A stretch of 11,533 nucleotides of DNA, taken from contig DAOVET010000083.1 in NCBI GenBank assembly GCA_030668825.1, positions 1 through 11,533 on the forward strand, written 5' to 3'. This DNA is from Candidatus Heimdallarchaeota archaeon. Its GTDB lineage: Archaea > Asgardarchaeota > Heimdallarchaeia > Heimdallarchaeales > Heimdallarchaeaceae. The notes below the pieces were generated by a model. That model was not told the DNA's origin and made no database searches. It worked only from the letters and a program-made list of their open reading frames with translations. This document shows positions 4,156-11,533 of the stretch, piece by piece. Position 1 is the stretch's first letter, and the number at the start of each line of letters is the position of its first letter. Both the position numbers and the translations under genes were made by a program.

Positions 4156-4176
4156 GATAAGAGAGAGTTGTTACTA

Positions 4177-5727
4177 ATGACCTTAATCAATGAGAAAGTT
4201 GTAATGGGTTTCTATCTGAAACTAATTGATAAGGATGAAATTAAATTCTTAGTTGGAAAGGAAAAAGAAAAAGAAGAAGTCAAAGAGAAAATCACTCTTT
4301 TAAAGAAGAGCGAAGAAATTCATGATAAAATACAAAGTGCAAAAGAGTTATGGAAAGTGCTATTCGAGGTTTCAATGGAATATATTGATCCCGATAAACA
4401 AGGATATGATGACCTTTTCAAATACTTTGATGAGTTTGTTAAATTTGAAGAACTCATTTTTGCTTCAGATTCCTTCTATAGAGATCATACTCTCCACTCT
4501 CTATGGGTTTATTTTCTAGGTGAATATCTACATAAGAAACCTGAATTCAGTTTTCTTTTCCAAAATCTTAACAGACATTTAAAAGTTTCAGCATTCATAA
4601 ATGAATATTATAAGGATTTAGAGGTACCAAACATCTTTGGAGAACTTAATTTTCTCCTTTCAAGAGTTGCTGAAGTTTTAGAGTATGAAGACTCTGTAAG
4701 ATGTGTAACAGCTTTAACTCATGACTTAGGTTATCCCCTGAAGAAAATTTCCAAAATAAATAAATCAATTAGAAATGTTCTTCCTTTTTTCTCAATCTCG
4801 AAATTTGGAGAATTTGATTTTCAATTTGAGAATGTTCAACAATTTTATATCGAAAATCTTCTAGAGATTCTTTCACTAAATATTAGCTTTGTTATTGAAA
4901 TCAGTGATTTTACTTTTGAAGAAAGACAAATTGTTCAGGAAATGATAGATAAGATAAATAAAATTTCAACCTATTTGTTCAATCTTCAAGAGCCTAGCGA
5001 AGAAGAGTTTCTGGAACTGAGATTGCTTCTGAGCCAAGCTACTGATAAGCAAGCAGATATTTTAAGAAGAATCTATACAATAAAAGGAGCTATGCAAAAG
5101 GATATGTCAGCAATTCTAAGATACTCTGATGATTTTGAGCATTATACTCATGGGATTATGAGTGCATATCTTTTGATGAAGACACTTAAAGCTTTTTCAA
5201 ATCTCCCAATTATTTATAGTAATCCTGATAATATCGAACTAGATGGTTTGAATATAGCGGCTGTTAATTCGAAAATGATTATCCTCAAAGCAATGACTGA
5301 CCATACTAGTCAAGGTTTTCAGATAAGAGACTTTACAAAAAATTCTGAGGTTTTAATTTTATTTGATGAAATAGAGGAATTTTCCAGAATATCTAGAGCT
5401 AATCAATATAGACAATATGTTAATGAATTCTGCAAAACTGATCTGAGCGTTGAAGATGGTGTCTTAAACATTGATTTCATTTTTGATGATGAAAACGTAG
5501 CAGATTTAGATCCTGAAATAACCTTCAGAGATAAATGCAAGAGGTTTACTACAGTTTTTGACATTAGAAATCTTGCTGACCATATAAAAATACGATTTAG
5601 AAGCATAGGTAAATTACCTCAAAATAAAAACACATACGAATTATTTATAGAAAGAGATAATGTAAAAATTTCAATAAATGGTGAAGAAAAAGAACTGACA
5701 GAATACTTGAAAACAAAAGAGATTTAA
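4177..5727 (+). CDS. HD-superfamily metal-dependent phosphohydrolase-like protein (start uncertain: 4168 TTG, 4177 ATG or 4204 ATG)
   Basis: Ordered HD-fold motifs: YRDHTLHSLWV (first His), ALTHDLGYP (HD doublet), HGIMSA, AMTDH and LILFDEIEEFSR (distal Asp). There is a long acidic helical insert between the HD and HG motifs and a beta-rich C-terminal region. Confidence 0.7.
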   Translation: MTLINEKVVMGFYLKLIDKDEIKFLVGKEKEKEEVKEKITLLKKSEEIHDKIQSAKELWKVLFEVSMEYIDPDKQGYDDLFKYFDEFVKFEELIFASDSFYRDHTLHSLWVYFLGEYLHKKPEFSFLFQNLNRHLKVSAFINEYYKDLEVPNIFGELNFLLSRVAEVLEYEDSVRCVTALTHDLGYPLKKISKINKSIRNVLPFFSISKFGEFDFQFENVQQFYIENLLEILSLNISFVIEISDFTFEERQIVQEMIDKINKISTYLFNLQEPSEEEFLELRLLLSQATDKQADILRRIYTIKGAMQKDMSAILRYSDDFEHYTHGIMSAYLLMKTLKAFSNLPIIYSNPDNIELDGLNIAAVNSKMIILKAMTDHTSQGFQIRDFTKNSEVLILFDEIEEFSRISRANQYRQYVNEFCKTDLSVEDGVLNIDFIFDDENVADLDPEITFRDKCKRFTTVFDIRNLADHIKIRFRSIGKLPQNKNTYELFIERDNVKISINGEEKELTEYLKTKEI

Positions 5728-5807: not shown

Positions 5808-6929
5808 ATGGAGAAACAAACAAGTTTTGATAATATCGAGGATATATATCGAATTATTTTCGAGAAGTTAAACGATAGTATAGTTGTATTTCTATTAGAT
5901 GAAAATAATGAGATGTTGAATTTTGTTTATTCGAATCCAGCATCAACAAAATGGACTGGATTTACAAAAGAAGAAATTCTAAACAGTAATCCTAAGCATC
6001 TTTTTGCTCCTCACTGTTTAGATGATGTAAGAAAGAACATTGATACTATAGTTAAGGAAGGATTTCTTACCCATGAAATGGAAATAACTCTCAGTGATGG
6101 TACATTCTTGCCCGTTGAACTTAGCTCCAGTCTTATAACAGTAGGAGATGAAAGGTTTATACTAACTAGTGGGAGAGAAATTGCTGGAAGAGTTGAAGCA
6201 CGTGAAGAGAAAGAAGAAAGAATGAAAGAAAAAACTCTACTTTTGGATATTCTTACTCACGACCTTCGTAATTATATTTCTGTTTTGTGGGGTTGTATTT
6301 CACAAACTCTTGATGAAGAAGATGTAACAATTGAAGAGATCAAAGCTTCTGTTTTAAGAGCAAAAGCTTCTCTAGCAAAAACAGATGCACTTCTAGATGA
6401 TATCTCAGTTCTGATGAAAAAAGATATTGAATTTACTTATGAGCTAAGACCAGTTAATATACTCAACAATATCCAAAAATGTCAATCAAATCTAGATGAT
6501 ATGTATCCATTAAAGGATATAAAAATCGATACAAATAAGGTTAATCCTAAGCAAAATGTTCTAGCTGATATGTTGTTTGAACAACTCATTTTCAATATCC
6601 TTTCAAATTCTGTAAAAAACACTCCAAGTCCAGCTGTTAGAATTGATATAAGTACAGAAGAAAAACAAGATGGAATGATCATCATTTCCATTGCTGATTT
6701 TGGAAAAGGCATTACTCAAGATAAAAGAAGAAAAATCTTTGAAAGATATGGTGAATTCCGCAAAAAAGATTCAGGTTCAGGTCTAGGTTTGTTCATTATC
6801 CAAACTTTAATTGAGAGATACAAAGGACAAGTATGGATTGAAAATACAATCAAAGGAGATTACACTAAGGGAACAACTTTCAAAATTGAACTAAGGAAAA
6901 CTGAAACTGAAATGTTTGAATTTGCCTGA
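5808..6929 (+). CDS. Soluble PAS-domain sensor histidine kinase
   Basis: PAS domain (VYSNPASTKWTGFTKEEILN...DGTFLPVELSSS...GREI), H-box THDLRN, N-box NILSNSVKN, G1 DFGKGI, F-box IFERY, G2 GSGLGL and GTTF. No TM segment. GAGAGG lies upstream of the ATG. Confidence 0.93.
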   Translation: MEKQTSFDNIEDIYRIIFEKLNDSIVVFLLDENNEMLNFVYSNPASTKWTGFTKEEILNSNPKHLFAPHCLDDVRKNIDTIVKEGFLTHEMEITLSDGTFLPVELSSSLITVGDERFILTSGREIAGRVEAREEKEERMKEKTLLLDILTHDLRNYISVLWGCISQTLDEEDVTIEEIKASVLRAKASLAKTDALLDDISVLMKKDIEFTYELRPVNILNNIQKCQSNLDDMYPLKDIKIDTNKVNPKQNVLADMLFEQLIFNILSNSVKNTPSPAVRIDISTEEKQDGMIIISIADFGKGITQDKRRKIFERYGEFRKKDSGSGLGLFIIQTLIERYKGQVWIENTIKGDYTKGTTFKIELRKTETEMFEFA

Positions 6930-6946: not shown

Positions 6947-8473
6947 TTATTTCGTAGACTCAGGTTCATCTTTGTAGAGTTTCTGATAAGTAGCAGAGAT
7001 TTTTCCTTCTTTTCGCAATTGAGCAATATATTCTTGTTCTTTTTGTAAATGAATAGCATTTAGTTTCTTTTTCTTCTCAAACCAATTAGGACCATCTAGC
7101 CTATACCACTTTAGAGCTAAAGCACTAAGAATTAAAGAGATAGCTGGAATCAAAGTGAATCCTAGAACTATACCAAATTGAGTCTGAGAGGTTTGAGTTG
7201 CAATTTCATTATCAAATCCAAATGCGCTAATGATTGCAAGAAAGACAGCGTTAGCGATCGAAATTGCAGGTTTAGTTACTAAAGCATTCATTCCAGCGTA
7301 AGTAGTTTCTCTTCTCTTTCCTGTAAGAAGCTCGTCATTATCAATAACATCTCCCATCAATGGTCCATTAATAAGGGCAACAGGAGCAAAGCCCATTCCT
7401 AGAACAGCTAGTACTATCAAAGAAGGGATAGTGAATTTTCCAACAGCTAACAATAAAAGAAATACAACACTTGAAGAAATTAATCCAACAATATACACTT
7501 TCTTTAACCCATATTTCTTCACATAATGGTTTGCTAAAACTGAAAAACCAAAGACCATTACAAATACCAACACAAGGGGTAGAGAAGCCATTAATCCCGA
7601 AAAACCAAGAACATAAGGAACGAAATAATAGATTGCTCCAGTTAAGGTTGTGTAAGCTAGTATGTAAAAGAAGTTACTAACCTCAAAAACAAGAAACTCC
7701 CTATTCTTAACTGTTTCAACTATTGATTTAATGAAACCTAAAGGTTCTTCAGTTCTTGCATATTCATTCTCTACTAAAAAGAAACTAGCTACAAACATTA
7801 TTGTTCCAGCGACTATCCCCACTATTATCATCGCAGGTCTGAAGAAAGGATGAATTACACCTGGTTCACTGTCAAGTAAGATAAGTGGTATAACCATTGC
7901 TACAATCAAACCTAAAGCTCCAAGATATATTGAATAAACAGACAAATTCGATCTGCCTTGTTGAGTTAAAGTCATTTCTGCTGGGAGAGTGTATGTGATT
8001 AAACCAATCATAGTATAGAGAGAATCGACTAAAAACAAAACAAAGAGCATATTCCAAAATAATACCATTTGAGGAGCATTAGAAATAGAAGACCAGTCAG
8101 GAATGTTCCAGAATATAGCAGCATGTGAAGTACCAGAGAAAGGATACCAACAGAAAATGAACGTTAGAACATATATTGGTGCTCCATATCGTAAATAGGG
8201 GATTCTTCGACCGATTTTAGTATTTGTGCGTTCTTGGAGAATACCAAATAATGGATCATTTATTGCATTCCAAATAGCAAATACTAACCAAACTATTGCA
8301 ACAAGTTCTGCACTAAGACCTAATTTCACGTTATAGAAGAGAGTTAGAGCGCCACTTATTGCTAATCCACTTAACATTCCATTTGCAGAATTAGTAAATC
8401 CATAAGCAAATTTTGATTTTAGGGGTAATCGTTCATCAATAAATTTTGTTTCAGATTTATCATTCGGTTCCAT
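6947..8473 (-). CDS. MFS transporter, glycoside-pentoside-hexuronide (GPH / MelB / MFS_2) family
   Basis: About 12 hydrophobic helices with GPH signatures: K.AYG, 'IWNAINDPLFG...ERT.TKIGRR.PY', 'LPAEMT....R' and 'DVIDNDELLTGKRRETTY'. AAGGAG lies upstream of the start. Confidence 0.92.
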   Translation of the reverse strand: MEPNDKSETKFIDERLPLKSKFAYGFTNSANGMLSGLAISGALTLFYNVKLGLSAELVAIVWLVFAIWNAINDPLFGILQERTNTKIGRRIPYLRYGAPIYVLTFIFCWYPFSGTSHAAIFWNIPDWSSISNAPQMVLFWNMLFVLFLVDSLYTMIGLITYTLPAEMTLTQQGRSNLSVYSIYLGALGLIVAMVIPLILLDSEPGVIHPFFRPAMIIVGIVAGTIMFVASFFLVENEYARTEEPLGFIKSIVETVKNREFLVFEVSNFFYILAYTTLTGAIYYFVPYVLGFSGLMASLPLVLVFVMVFGFSVLANHYVKKYGLKKVYIVGLISSSVVFLLLLAVGKFTIPSLIVLAVLGMGFAPVALINGPLMGDVIDNDELLTGKRRETTYAGMNALVTKPAISIANAVFLAIISAFGFDNEIATQTSQTQFGIVLGFTLIPAISLILSALALKWYRLDGPNWFEKKKKLNAIHLQKEQEYIAQLRKEGKISATYQKLYKDEPESTK

Positions 8474-8563
8474 TAGAAAAAATGACTCCTTATTCTAAGT
8501 AAGTCGGTTAATAACTCTCAAAGAAATAAGTTAATCTTAAGCCTTTTTCCACTTTTGAAGAAT

Positions 8564-10102
8564 CTAACTGTTTCTAAGAGTAAGTTCCTTTGATTTCTTC
8601 TTCATAAAATATCTCTTAACAAGCAGAACAGCTGCTATAGCAAGTAAGTAACTAACAACCCAAACTGAAACATATGTTTTCTCTGAAATTAAGAGTAATG
8701 GATTATCAATTTCCTGATAAACTATAGGTTCGTCAGTTGTAACTGAAGTTACACCTAATGCCCAGAGTTGCTGAAATCTCGAAGCCATATTCACTGTCCA
8801 GACATTTATGGACACATTATTGTTATAATAATCTCTTAAGACACTATTAGGTTTCTCATGAGCAGAATTAATCATGTCATATCCTGTAGCTTGAAACTCT
8901 TCAGCATTAATATTGTCTGAAAAATCCAGAGAAAGTGCAGTAATTATATCTGGTGCTTGAGCTAATACTAAATCTAACCAATCTCTCTCATATGATGTGA
9001 CCCATATGTGAGAATCATAATCAGCTGCAATTAAAACAGCAAGAGAGATATTAAAGTATTGATCGTAAAAGGGATGTGATTCAGGAGGAGATTTAAAGTC
9101 TACATCTACTAGAAGATTAGCAGATTTGGAATAAATCAAAGCTTCTTCTAAAGTTGGTATTGATGCATTCTGATAGATGGTAAATAGATTTGTTGGAACT
9201 TTATCTTTTGAAATCAAACCATATGGATCTTCTTCCAAAAACCATTCACCCGCATTGAGCTTTTTCAAATCAGTTATATTGAATGAACTAGAAGAATCCT
9301 CTGCTCTTAAAGGAAAAGTTTCTGAAACATTAGTAGTTCTCTGTAATGTCCCATCATGCATTAGGAAAGGTATTCCATCATTACTGATCTGAACATCGAT
9401 TTCCCAGCCATCAGCACCAATCTGGTTGACATACATAGCTGCTGCAATTGTGTTTTCAGGAGCATATCTTGCCCCACCTCGGTGTGCAATTAAAAGAGGT
9501 TTAGGAGGCAATTCCGCCCTTATTACATATACAGGTTGAAATACTAAAGGCATTATCAGTAACCACGAAAAAAATAGAAATGTTCCCACAAGTGGAAGGA
9601 TTCTTTTTGTTTGCGAAATAAATGACTTCTTTGCTGGTTTCTTAAATAAAGCTAGAACTTCATCTGTGAAAGCATATAATAACAAAAGCGAAGCAATGAT
9701 GAGAACAATTGAAATGAAAGGTAAATAGTATTCCAGTACATAGAAAAGAATCACTGCATTTTCTTCAAGAACTACGATTAACCCTACTAATAACCCTATT
9801 ATAAAAATAAGCAAGAAAATACTTAGTATTTTGTTAACAAGTGATGGTCTAATTTCGTATTCTCTTCTAATTTGAATTACATATTTGACAATAAAGAATC
9901 CAGCATAGACCAAGGGGATTAGAAAGATAAGCATCAAGAGAAGAACATAGTTTGTATATACACCAAACAAATCCCCGATAAAATCGTTGAATTCCACATG
10001 CATTGGTCTTAAAAACATGAAGAGTGCTTCTAGAAAAAGAGCACTTATAAAAAGTAAAGAGAAGAATAAAATCCATTTCTTACCATGTAAATGATCTTCC
10101 AT
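8564..10102 (-). CDS. Multi-pass membrane glycerophosphodiester phosphodiesterase (GDPD), six-TM GDE2/GDE3-like architecture (start ATG 10102 or TTG 10111)
   Basis: GDPD catalytic motifs IAHRGG (His at 9482-9484), APENT, GWEIDV, FLMHD.TL.RTT, IPTLEE, DFK, WTVN and GVTSVTTD. Five N-terminal hydrophobic helices and one C-terminal helix followed by a basic tail. Confidence 0.92.
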   Translation of the reverse strand: MEDHLHGKKWILFFSLLFISALFLEALFMFLRPMHVEFNDFIGDLFGVYTNYVLLLMLIFLIPLVYAGFFIVKYVIQIRREYEIRPSLVNKILSIFLLIFIIGLLVGLIVVLEENAVILFYVLEYYLPFISIVLIIASLLLLYAFTDEVLALFKKPAKKSFISQTKRILPLVGTFLFFSWLLIMPLVFQPVYVIRAELPPKPLLIAHRGGARYAPENTIAAAMYVNQIGADGWEIDVQISNDGIPFLMHDGTLQRTTNVSETFPLRAEDSSSSFNITDLKKLNAGEWFLEEDPYGLISKDKVPTNLFTIYQNASIPTLEEALIYSKSANLLVDVDFKSPPESHPFYDQYFNISLAVLIAADYDSHIWVTSYERDWLDLVLAQAPDIITALSLDFSDNINAEEFQATGYDMINSAHEKPNSVLRDYYNNNVSINVWTVNMASRFQQLWALGVTSVTTDEPIVYQEIDNPLLLISEKTYVSVWVVSYLLAIAAVLLVKRYFMKKKSKELTLRNS

Positions 10103-10130
10103 TATTAACAAATATTCCTTCTATCAAACA

Positions 10131-10140
10131 TATATAAAAG
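10131..10140 (-). promoter_or_regulatory. Putative TATA box for the GDPD gene
   Basis: The minus strand reads CTTTTATATA, about 20-29 nt upstream of the candidate starts 10111 and 10102. Confidence 0.45.
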
Positions 10141-10344: not shown

Positions 10345-10384
10345 TTGTTATTAATTGAAATCTAAACTGAAGGTATTTACATTT

Positions 10385-10867
10385 ATGAATGAAGAAAAAC
10401 TAAATGAAGTAGGAGCATTAACAGAAGTAGATTCCAAAGATTTAACAAAGAAAAAGATTAGAAATAAAATTACTCTTGTTTATTATTATTTGATACAGTT
10501 TGCTTTCTTAGTATTTTCAAGCCTAGTAGGAGTAGCATTTGGTTTGTACAGTAGATCAACTGCTACCTATCCCTATAGTGTTTTTCCAGAGAGATATATC
10601 TATGGACCAATAATATTGGCAATAACTCATGGAGGAAATTTGGGTTTATCTTTCCAACTAAGTAGAAAAAAAAGGTTGATATTGAAAAAGAGTGAACCTA
10701 AGGAATTAGCACTTCCTTATATATATCCGGCGATTTTTCTAAATATAATCCTGTCAACGATAAGTCTGTTTGCAACACATAATTTAGTACTCAATGGAAG
10801 CATATTCACTATTAGTACATTGTATGGAGTTTATGATAAAAAGGACTTGAATATTAAGAAAATCTAG
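10385..10867 (+). CDS. Hypothetical membrane protein (about 3-4 TM), paralog A
   Basis: The ORF track starts at TTG 10355, but ATG 10385 (MNEEKLNEVG) aligns with the start of the downstream paralog. Hydrophobic segments are flanked by Lys-rich patches. Full-length similarity to paralog B supports coding status. Confidence 0.8.
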   Translation: MNEEKLNEVGALTEVDSKDLTKKKIRNKITLVYYYLIQFAFLVFSSLVGVAFGLYSRSTATYPYSVFPERYIYGPIILAITHGGNLGLSFQLSRKKRLILKKSEPKELALPYIYPAIFLNIILSTISLFATHNLVLNGSIFTISTLYGVYDKKDLNIKKI

Positions 10868-11023: not shown

Positions 11024-11091
11024 TAAATAAGTGAATCATAAATATTTGATAATTGATGATTAAGTAAAACTCGATGTAAATCAAGGAGTTG

Positions 11092-11533
11092 ATGAAGATA
11101 AACGAAAACCAATTAGAGGAAGTTGGAGGTTTAGTAGATGTTAATCCAAATGACATAAAGAAGAAAAAAGGAAAGAAACTTCATGGATATCTAATTCATT
11201 ATCTTGTTCAAGTTTTTGTGCTTCTCCTATCCTCTCTGATGGGTTATCTTTTTGTATTATGGGAGCACTCAGATAGGAGTGGTTATCCATACACATCATT
11301 CAATCCTTTTCTTAGACATACACATCTAGGCCCAATCAGTCTTCTAACTTTGCATGGAGGAAATGCAGCTCACAGCTATTTTCATAAAAAGAGATATAAT
11401 CTCAGTTTTGTTGAAGTTTATCCTGCAATATTTGTCAATCTTATAATCTCTTTCATCAGTTTTTTTATGATTTTTAACGCATTATATCAAGAACCAATAT
11501 TCTATGGTATACCTTTGTATGGTGTATTCAATA
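11092..11533 (+). CDS. Hypothetical membrane protein, paralog B (cut by the right window edge)
   Basis: Not in the ORF track. AAGGAG SD, then ATG 11092: MKINENQLEEVGGLVDVNPNDIKKKKGKKLHGYLIHYLVQVFVLLLSSLMGYLFVLWEHSDRSGYPYTSFNPFLRHTHLGPISLLTLHGGNAAHSYFHKKRYNLSFVEVYPAIFVNLIISFISFFMIFNALYQEPIFYGIPLYGVFN, open to the end and collinear with paralog A. Confidence 0.85.
   Translation, partial: MKINENQLEEVGGLVDVNPNDIKKKKGKKLHGYLIHYLVQVFVLLLSSLMGYLFVLWEHSDRSGYPYTSFNPFLRHTHLGPISLLTLHGGNAAHSYFHKKRYNLSFVEVYPAIFVNLIISFISFFMIFNALYQEPIFYGIPLYGVFN

Follow-up and report, generated by a model that had tools for sequence, protein, structure and literature searches.

Does the six-transmembrane (six-TM) phosphodiesterase family that is known from the surface of animal cells also exist in archaea, and if so, is the archaeal enzyme an ancestor of the animal ones? 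Both questions are raised by a gene for a glycerophosphodiester phosphodiesterase (GDPD) on contig DAOVET010000083.1 of a Candidatus Heimdallarchaeota archaeon (assembly GCA_030668825.1; 138 contigs that add up to 2.76 Mb, with an estimated completeness of 90.6% and contamination of 4.67%). The window analysed here is this whole contig of 11,533 bases. In excerpts of PMC7033719 and PMC5576486, GDE2, GDE3 and GDE6 are treated as an animal surface-enzyme family that sheds glycosylphosphatidylinositol (GPI)-anchored proteins and steers neuronal and bone-cell differentiation; there, GDE2 and GDE3 are described as cleaving GPI anchors, GDE3 in the manner of a phospholipase C, with substrates in the outer leaflet. 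We consider it likely that the window encodes a genuine and probably active six-TM GDPD of the GDE2/GDE3/GDE6 type in a Heimdallarchaeota-type Asgard archaeon, that this enzyme would hydrolyse head groups at the outer membrane face with an MFS_2 transporter as partner, and that by evolution it is a relative of the animal enzymes rather than an established ancestor of them. The build is that of a known family; the hosts are new.

Likeness to animal GDE2, GDE3 and GDE6

The initial annotation had put the gene at 8564–10111, and these coordinates were right; the gene lies on the minus strand (Table 1). A plus-strand reading of the same positions contains many stops and was rejected. When the product was used as query in a word-indexed protein search, 91 proteins were found at E<=0.001, about 50 archaeal or unnamed ones first and then named animal GDPD2, GDPD5 and GDPD4, such as Lynx GDPD2 (P0051; E 1e-54, 29% identity, 88% of the query), Pelobates GDPD2 (96% of the query) and Gastrophryne GDPD5 (E 3e-46, 96%). 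Ordinary soluble GDPDs came at E>1e-20 only and covered 18–50% of the query. By BLASTP, the protein is colinear with frog GDPD2 (P0052) from residue 14 to 508 against 42 to 521 (29% identity, E 2e-64) and 28% identical to frog GDPD5 (P0054) over residues 5–496 (E 1e-48). The motif resemblances to GDPD5 that had been proposed at first are real in these alignments, which contain the pairs LPPKPLLIAHRG / LGPKPRIIGHRG, PFLMHDGTLQRTTNV / PFLMHDGTLRRTTNI, LNAGEWFLEEDP / LNAGEWFLKLDP and LWALGVTSVTTD / LWCAGVPSVTSD. In the reciprocal search, frog GDPD2 found the window's open reading frame at E 1.1e-58 over residues 43–522, and the sole other GDPD of the genome at E 2.8e-10 over 61 residues.

Does the likeness extend to the membrane part? 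This was one of the points on which the initial annotation had made its reading depend, and the homology is there. With all sequences cut just before the HRG motif and compared profile against profile by hhalign, the Asgard TM module matched the eukaryotic one with a probability of 97.8% (E 7e-13, 184 columns) and the Chloroflexota one with a probability of 98.5% (E 2.8e-15), against 0.5–17% (E 0.0015–0.13) in four reversed-sequence controls. The TM positions stay in register over 238 family proteins, animal ones included, and in a family alignment of 54 sequences the majority consensus retains the conserved polar membrane positions N, G, Y, KI and P, among them the N, KI and P that had been noticed at the outset. 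These comparisons support the view that the window protein is a prokaryotic counterpart of GDE2/GDE3/GDE6 over its full length and that this extends to the TM module.

Its parts follow one another as in vertebrate GDE3/GDPD2, GDE2/GDPD5 and GDE6/GDPD4: after five TM helices come the GDPD ectodomain, another TM helix and the tail. This build, together with the basic character of the tail, had been described from the start and is borne out by several methods. Pfam places GDPD (PF03009) at residues 210–462 (E 1.4e-26, 94.5 bits against a cut-off of 23.6), and the Kyte-Doolittle profile has five hydrophobic segments N-terminally and one C-terminally at 478–503. An AlphaFold2 model made from the family alignment (predicted local distance difference test score, pLDDT, 93.9; predicted TM-score, pTM, 0.91) arranges long helices at residues 11–33, 55–84, 91–128, 130–157, 164–190 and 477–514 around a beta/alpha barrel. 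From the positive-inside rule and the analogy with GDE2 we infer that both termini are cytoplasmic and the barrel is outside: 18 K+R lie in the four segments predicted to be cytoplasmic and one in the two short outer loops, and the ectodomain is acidic (17 K+R, 40 D+E) and holds all five N-X-S/T sequons. Compared with the vertebrate enzymes, the window protein has shorter tails (515 aa against 539–734 aa in the animal rows), has no cysteine at all and works in a host with archaeal lipids.

Table 1. Coordinates of the features in the window
Feature	Position	Strand	Remarks
Six-TM GDPD open reading frame	8564..10111	-	515 aa from TTG at 10111; stop TAG at 8566..8564
N-terminal membrane module	9542..10081	-	Residues 11-190; five TM helices and a short helix 35-49 in the first outer loop; hydropathy, AlphaFold2, profile match
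GDPD TIM-barrel catalytic ectodomain (predicted)	8708..9505	-	Residues 203-468; Pfam, PDB sequence and fold matches
Sixth TM helix	8603..8683	-	Residues 477-503; hydropathy, AlphaFold2
Basic cytoplasmic tail (predicted)	8567..8602	-	Residues 504-515; 6 K+R within 500-515
TTTATATA, archaeal TATA-box-like element	10131..10138	-	28 nt upstream of ATG 10102; read directly from the sequence
MFS_2 (GPH-family) transporter	6947..8473	-	90 nt after the GDPD stop; GGAG at 8489..8486; Pfam MFS_2, 219 bits
Tandem paralogous small membrane proteins	10355..10867 and 11089..11532 (runs off contig)	+	39% identical, E 3e-23
519-aa protein	4168..5727	+	No Pfam/NCBIfam match; 75-95% identity in Heimdall-type loci L073 and L074
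PAS/HATPase_c histidine-kinase-like gene	5808..6929		Adjoins the gene of the 519-aa protein

The catalytic residues were counted by alignment column in 21 Asgard, 13 Chloroflexota, 17 eukaryote and 12 outgroup rows. The set in the ectodomain comprises H210, R211, E219, E237, D239, H252, D253, R258 and D338, of which E237, D239, H252, D253 and R258 do not vary in any of the four groups; H210 occurs in 21/21 Asgard, 12/13 Chloroflexota, 17/17 eukaryote and 12/12 outgroup rows. In the BLASTP alignments H210, R211, E237, D239, H252 and D253 face the animal residues, and all of them are kept in each of the 21 Asgard rows. The counterpart of H210 in the HRG motif is H229 of GDE3 and H233 of GDE2, whose mutation abolishes activity according to an excerpt of PMC5576486. 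Because every catalytic residue is present, the window protein is probably an active enzyme.

What separates it from ordinary GDPDs? Soluble and lipoprotein enzymes of the GlpQ/UgpQ type (PDB 5t91, 2pz0, 2otd) have the same TIM-barrel fold and the same catalytic His/Arg/Glu/Asp set; they differ in having no six-helix membrane module, no HP insertion, no W450 and, as third metal ligand, E instead of D. Indeed, D338 (E in 11 of the 12 outgroup rows), H346-P347 and W450 are common to all three six-TM clades described below, so that the window protein keeps them together with the catalytic His and the metal ligands of the vertebrate enzymes.

Translation probably begins with the ATG at 10102..10100 (codon 4), which gives a product of 512 aa. 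We take it as the likely start because the closest relative on record, P0002, also has 512 aa and because the TTTATATA box lies upstream; given this box, the gene may have a promoter of its own and a leaderless or near-leaderless mRNA. In close homologues (G018, G032, G020, G021 and others) one in-frame stop falls inside a full-length match to the query. These stops probably reflect that the first three residues of the query lie upstream of the real ATG, which fits the start at 10102.

The closest named relatives of the protein come from metagenome-assembled genomes (MAGs) of Candidatus Heimdallarchaeota, in agreement with the archaeal host proposed initially, and the contig is no contaminant, because its gene order recurs in ten Candidatus Heimdallarchaeota loci. 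Its G+C content runs from 28 to 36%.

Distribution and ancestry of the six-TM family

How far does the family reach among prokaryotes? Full-length homologues at E<=1e-20 turned up in 64 of the 400 genomes searched in the window's phylum, over nine family codes and 21 of 85 genera; within the window's genus the count is 14 of 24 other genomes. Two closed genomes, G137 and G142, are among the carriers. The titles of the Asgard carriers are Heimdall-, Hel-, Thor-, Hermod- and Promethearchaeota and Sigynarchaeota. A metagenome clade that adjoined the animals in a first quick tree proved to be Anaerolineae. With an alignment of this clade as query against species-representative genomes, 45 of the best 80 loci were titled Chloroflexota, Anaerolineae, Anaerolineaceae or Brevefilum, with full-length matches on contigs of up to 3.2 Mb, and the remaining 35 bore Asgard names (26), the name 'uncultured archaeon' (6) or other names (3). 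In an even sample of the Chloroflexota phylum, 7 of 401 genomes matched at E<=1e-30, full length in only 3; the class sample gave 1 of 301, which was the query genome itself, and its family 9 of 151. In the samples searched, the range of the six-TM family in bacteria is thus narrow, with few Anaerolineae as its carriers. The Anaerolineae proteins (for example those of loci L014–L054) have the same 5+1 TM architecture and family-specific residues as the window protein; they differ from it in being bacterial and forming a clade of their own, at ~27–29% identity, with other gene neighbours.

Three loci of one MAG naming series, L055, L066 and L085, titled Deferrimicrobium, Bathyarchaeia and Nanopelagicaceae, also carry six-TM GDPD genes. 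The closest of these resemble Asgard sequences of the Hel or Loki type: P0028–P0030 and P0033, of which P0033 bears the name Helarchaeota, are 62% identical to L055, and P0037 is 100% identical to it; mis-binning or mislabelling seems likelier for these three loci than real presence in the taxa named.

On the eukaryotic side, members were found in vertebrates, tunicates, annelids, a nemertean, a priapulid and echinoderms, and beyond animals in the ichthyosporean Chromosphaera perkinsii, the Archamoebae Mastigamoeba balamuthi and Pelomyxa schiedti, and the coccidia Toxoplasma/Hammondia. A search over 8000 candidates with an alignment of the four protists returned 48 proteins at E<=1e-10, among them no further named protist member, and left three of the four query sequences unrecovered; because the search is this insensitive, the eukaryotic range is a lower bound and absence from plants or fungi cannot be claimed. 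An unnamed metagenome clade (P0167/P0180/P0225, on contigs of up to 39.6 kb) stood among the animals, beside tunicates, in the quick tree. A look-up in the ESM Atlas gave the same three-way picture of Asgard, Chloroflexota and eukaryotic proteins, and an exhaustive search of representatives returned 124 clusters at E<=1e-30.

Is the archaeal enzyme, then, the ancestor of the animal ones? The initial annotation had inferred a protein like the eukaryotic signature proteins (ESPs), of archaeal ancestry. Three rooted trees were made, with neither the eukaryotic two-TM enzymes GDE1, GDE4 and GDE7 nor cytosolic GDE5 among their rows. Tree 1 (69 rows, 501 columns; LG+C20+F+G4 with posterior mean site frequencies, full search) recovered Asgards (94/86), eukaryotes (100/99), Chloroflexota (100/99) and the soluble outgroup (100/100), and split eukaryotes plus Chloroflexota from Asgards plus outgroup with an ultrafast bootstrap of 99 and a Shimodaira-Hasegawa-like approximate likelihood-ratio (SH-aLRT) support of 93. 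The outgroup of tree 1 had been chosen by likeness to the Asgard query, a possible source of bias in the rooting, and therefore ten soluble GDPDs similar to the protist proteins were added. Tree 2, with 20 outgroups, again united eukaryotes and Chloroflexota (SH-aLRT 96; Asgard monophyly 96), and so did tree 3, which was restricted to publicly named rows (21 Asgard, 13 Chloroflexota, 17 eukaryote, 12 outgroup; SH-aLRT 99, Asgard monophyly 85). Against the 10–20 soluble GDPDs, which include the GlpQ/UgpQ type, the six-TM clade is supported by 100/100, 98 and 100 in the three trees. In these trees, therefore, the family falls into three deep six-TM clades, and with the root placed on soluble GDPDs the Asgards form the sister group of Anaerolineae plus eukaryotes.

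Single residues mostly carry the same signal. W444 is found in 13/13 Chloroflexota and 17/17 eukaryote rows and in 0/21 Asgard rows, the window protein included, and W is not among the commonest outgroup residues there; eukaryotes and Chloroflexota also have in common L445, which the window protein lacks as well, a hydrophobic residue at 336 and the loss of W236. At columns 236, 336 and 439 the Asgards hold the outgroup state. The claim of archaeal ancestry is weakened because the Anaerolineae relatives branch next to the eukaryotes. The initial annotation had named as damaging the existence of bacterial six-TM homologues that are both nearer to eukaryotes and widespread; the first part holds for the Anaerolineae, and the second does not, given their narrow range.

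Two histories have to be weighed here. According to one, the GDE2/3/6 genes passed horizontally between Anaerolineae-like bacteria and eukaryotes, in one direction or the other, and the Asgards represent an independent ancient branch or the result of another transfer, in anoxic sediments shared by these organisms, off the direct line to animals. The eukaryote plus Chloroflexota clade of the three trees and the derived residues argue for it, as does the fact that animal proteins reach 36–41% identity over ~300 residues with Chloroflexota loci as compared with ~28% over ~490 with Asgard ones, in a locus set that is enriched in Chloroflexota. Approximately unbiased (AU) tests, made with iqtree2 and a site-frequency file for data set 1 and with short constrained searches (--fast) for data set 3, disfavour the alternatives to a different extent: uniting eukaryotes with Asgards costs 8.7 log-likelihood units in data set 1 (p 0.095) and 17.6 units in data set 3 (p 0.043), a borderline outcome that stops short of firm rejection, and uniting Asgards with Chloroflexota costs 17.1 units in data set 3 (p 0.112) and is not rejected. 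The very narrow and patchy bacterial range, however, is the pattern of a recipient lineage, and the root depends on distant outgroups. Moreover, Chloroflexota and eukaryotes are reciprocally monophyletic, so that the tree does not tell which way a transfer went; the range would be that of a recipient, and the topology would fit a bacterial donor of the eukaryotic gene just as well. On balance we regard this history as possible, though short of probable.

According to the other history, the six-TM GDE arose in Asgards and passed vertically to eukaryotes, the archaeal enzyme sheds proteins with GPI-like anchors or trims inositol glycolipids, and the Anaerolineae copies are secondary, taken up from the eukaryotic stem or from an Asgard lineage missing from the samples. 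The breadth of the family in Asgards beside its narrowness in bacteria speaks in favour of this, the eukaryotic spread over animals, an ichthyosporean, Archamoebae and coccidia is compatible with an old eukaryotic gene, and in the TM module the Asgard-eukaryote match (E 7e-13) beats the Chloroflexota-eukaryote one (E 1e-8). Nor is the eukaryote plus Asgard grouping rejected in data set 1. Nevertheless, it is Chloroflexota that stand next to the eukaryotes in every rooted tree and share derived residues with them alone, the grouping is rejected at 5% with the named rows, and the eukaryotes are not nested inside the Asgard clade. We therefore think this history unlikely. As far as the trees go, the window protein, in a clade apart from all eukaryotic members, is a relative of the animal enzymes whose status as an ancestor is not demonstrated.

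The adjacent transporter and other neighbours

Downstream of the GDPD gene and on the same strand lies a gene for an MFS_2 protein, and the two are probably co-transcribed. The best PDB matches of the MFS_2 protein are to MFSD2A, a sodium-dependent lysophosphatidylcholine symporter (7oix E 3.6e-19, 7mjs 1.4e-16, 7n98 5e-15, and down to 2.4e-10), as compared with 6.7e-8 for MelB; 7n98 is matched at residues 15–475 of the window protein against 39–514, near the full fold. The likeness to MFSD2A is distant, and the protein belongs to a well-conserved Asgard-wide group with homologues, 50–59% identical to it, from MAGs titled Odin-, Thor-, Hermod-, Sif-, Hod- and Promethearchaeota. It may thus be a second eukaryote-like lipid-handling membrane protein beside the GDPD. 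The adjacency of the two genes is kept in ten Heimdall-type loci (GDPD at least 72% identical), and in 8 of the 45 Chloroflexota loci an MFS_2 gene lies 4–6 kb from the GDPD gene. Two runs labelled RNA-Seq and flagged 'probably DNA' gave short contigs over parts of the GDPD and MFS_2 genes; nothing was drawn from them on expression or co-transcription.

Could the enzyme simply be a GlpQ-like scavenger tethered to the membrane? In that case it would split soluble glycerophosphodiesters from sediment biomass into glycerol phosphate and an alcohol, as a source of carbon or phosphorus, the TM helices would be a mere anchor and the transporter would import the product. The catalytic domain does superpose on barrels of the GlpQ/UgpQ type: Foldseek against the PDB found soluble GDPD barrels only (2otd, 2pz0, 5t9b), with TM-scores of 0.80–0.87 on the target and at most 0.44 on the query, and a PDB sequence search returned 29 distinct sequences with every match inside residues 201–468, so that among the entries matched by sequence or by Foldseek none is a solved structure that covers the membrane module. 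NCBIfam models for glycerophosphodiester phosphodiesterases also score, below the curated GlpQ/UgpQ-type cut-offs (PRK09454, 95.7 bits against 264; PRK11143, 47.2 against 254), the neighbour scores on the glycoside-pentoside-hexuronide (GPH) symporter family (TIGR00792, 145 bits, below the cut-off of 231), and the DNA occurs in cold-seep and marine-sediment metagenomes. However, a plain anchor needs one helix and here there are six; because their polar positions are conserved from archaea to animals and they pack rigidly against the barrel in the model, the module is in our opinion more than an anchor. In addition, animal enzymes of the same architecture act on membrane-embedded substrates, as excerpts of PMC7033719 and PMC5576486 have it, and the nearest solved relatives of the transporter are symporters for lysolipids and not for sugars. 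A scavenger of this kind appears rather unlikely to us.

The 170-aa small membrane protein encoded at 10355..10867 has no match in Pfam or NCBIfam, and the pair to which it belongs stands beside the GDPD gene in the related loci L005 and L074 as well. Clustering of the neighbourhoods of 92 loci gave no recurrent lipid-metabolism neighbour.

Possible substrates and meaning of the family

In the picture that we favour, the barrel would lie at the outer surface of the membrane, fixed rigidly to the helix bundle, and would hydrolyse the phosphodiester of membrane-proximal substrates such as inositol- or glycerol-phosphate lipid head groups, lysolipids or glycolipid anchors, in the way in which GDE2 and GDE3 act at the animal cell surface. 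The MFSD2A-like symporter could then import the amphipathic or polar product. By analogy with the animal enzymes, the protein is likely to be a surface phosphodiesterase for lipid, lysolipid or glycolipid head groups, and its pairing with the MFS_2 gene suggests a cut-and-import system for lysolipids or head groups.

Several observations weigh against this picture. Archaeal lipids are ether-linked sn-glycerol-1-phosphate lipids, and the animal substrates are therefore not simply transferable. The orientation of the protein is a prediction from the positive-inside rule and the GDE2 analogy. The GDPD-MFS_2 adjacency is absent from more distant Heimdall-type loci and, since only close relatives have it, the functional link may be local; in Chloroflexota, the neighbours are a PfkB kinase (21 of 45 loci), a SulP transporter and malic enzyme, none of them of lipid metabolism. 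As to ancestry, column C451 favours Asgards plus eukaryotes (Asgards 15/21, eukaryotes 15/17, Chloroflexota 0/13), the root is set by distant soluble outgroups that align over the catalytic domain only, and the four protist rows are long branches.

Would there be anchors to cut in such an archaeon? In a 2026 Nature paper (PMC12872458), GPI-anchor synthesis and the transamidase are called 'unambiguously Asgard-derived', and a preprint (10.64898/2026.05.08.723234) counts four Asgard donations to GPI-anchor biosynthesis. These statements favour the vertical history set out above, and for the GPI shedding that the initial annotation proposed they are support from outside; the genes around the GDPD gene and elsewhere in the genome lend no direct support to cleavage of GPI anchors, glycerophosphoinositol or lysolipids. 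The window genome, at its 90.6% completeness, speaks on the other side: the Pfam models GPI2, Gaa1, PIG-U and PIG-M have no match in it, nor in 14 control genomes, and because the controls are silent too this negative is a weak one. What is present is PIG-L, a broad family (4 matches), a partial Peptidase_C13 match (the legumain / GPI8 transamidase family; 40.6 bits, profile 111–188, at G000:C77:13516-13749 on the minus strand, in a 556-aa open frame), which has an equivalent in only 1 of the 14 controls, and an inositol-phosphate synthase match (NAD_binding_5) of 25.5 bits, at the cut-off. A literature search on archaeal GPI-like lipids gave nothing useful.

Has the family been noticed in prokaryotes before? 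No link of Asgard archaea, or of any prokaryote, with the six-TM GDE family was found in the literature searched, though supplementary tables of ESPs or orthogroups may list it; the words phosphodiesterase and GDPD have 0 occurrences in the main text of PMC12872458 and PMC13734099. Database names are generic, with one JGI entry reading 'glycerophosphoinositol inositolphosphodiesterase', and from this label it follows that automatic pipelines have noticed the likeness.

The finding means that the whole six-TM architecture exists in prokaryotes, in many Asgards and in a narrow group of Anaerolineae. The GDPD and its MFSD2A-like neighbour suggest a prokaryotic system for the processing and uptake of lysolipids or lipid head groups, and small orthologues without cysteines or introns become available for studies of the structure and mechanism of the membrane module. 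A candidate 'anchor-cutting' enzyme is thereby added to the debate on the Asgard origin of GPI-anchor synthesis. At its most far-reaching, an Asgard six-TM ecto-phosphodiesterase that cut inositol-glycolipid (GPI-like) anchors or head groups at the cell surface would have been inherited by the first eukaryotes as GDE2/GDE3/GDE6, the Anaerolineae copies being a side transfer from the eukaryotic stem; we hold this to be quite improbable but, if it were true, then together with Asgard GPI synthesis the regulated shedding of lipid-anchored surface proteins would predate eukaryotes. The origin of the family becomes a testable three-way question between Asgards, Chloroflexota and eukaryotes, and the archaeal gene is notable both for structural work and for the question of how a family of animal signalling enzymes arose.

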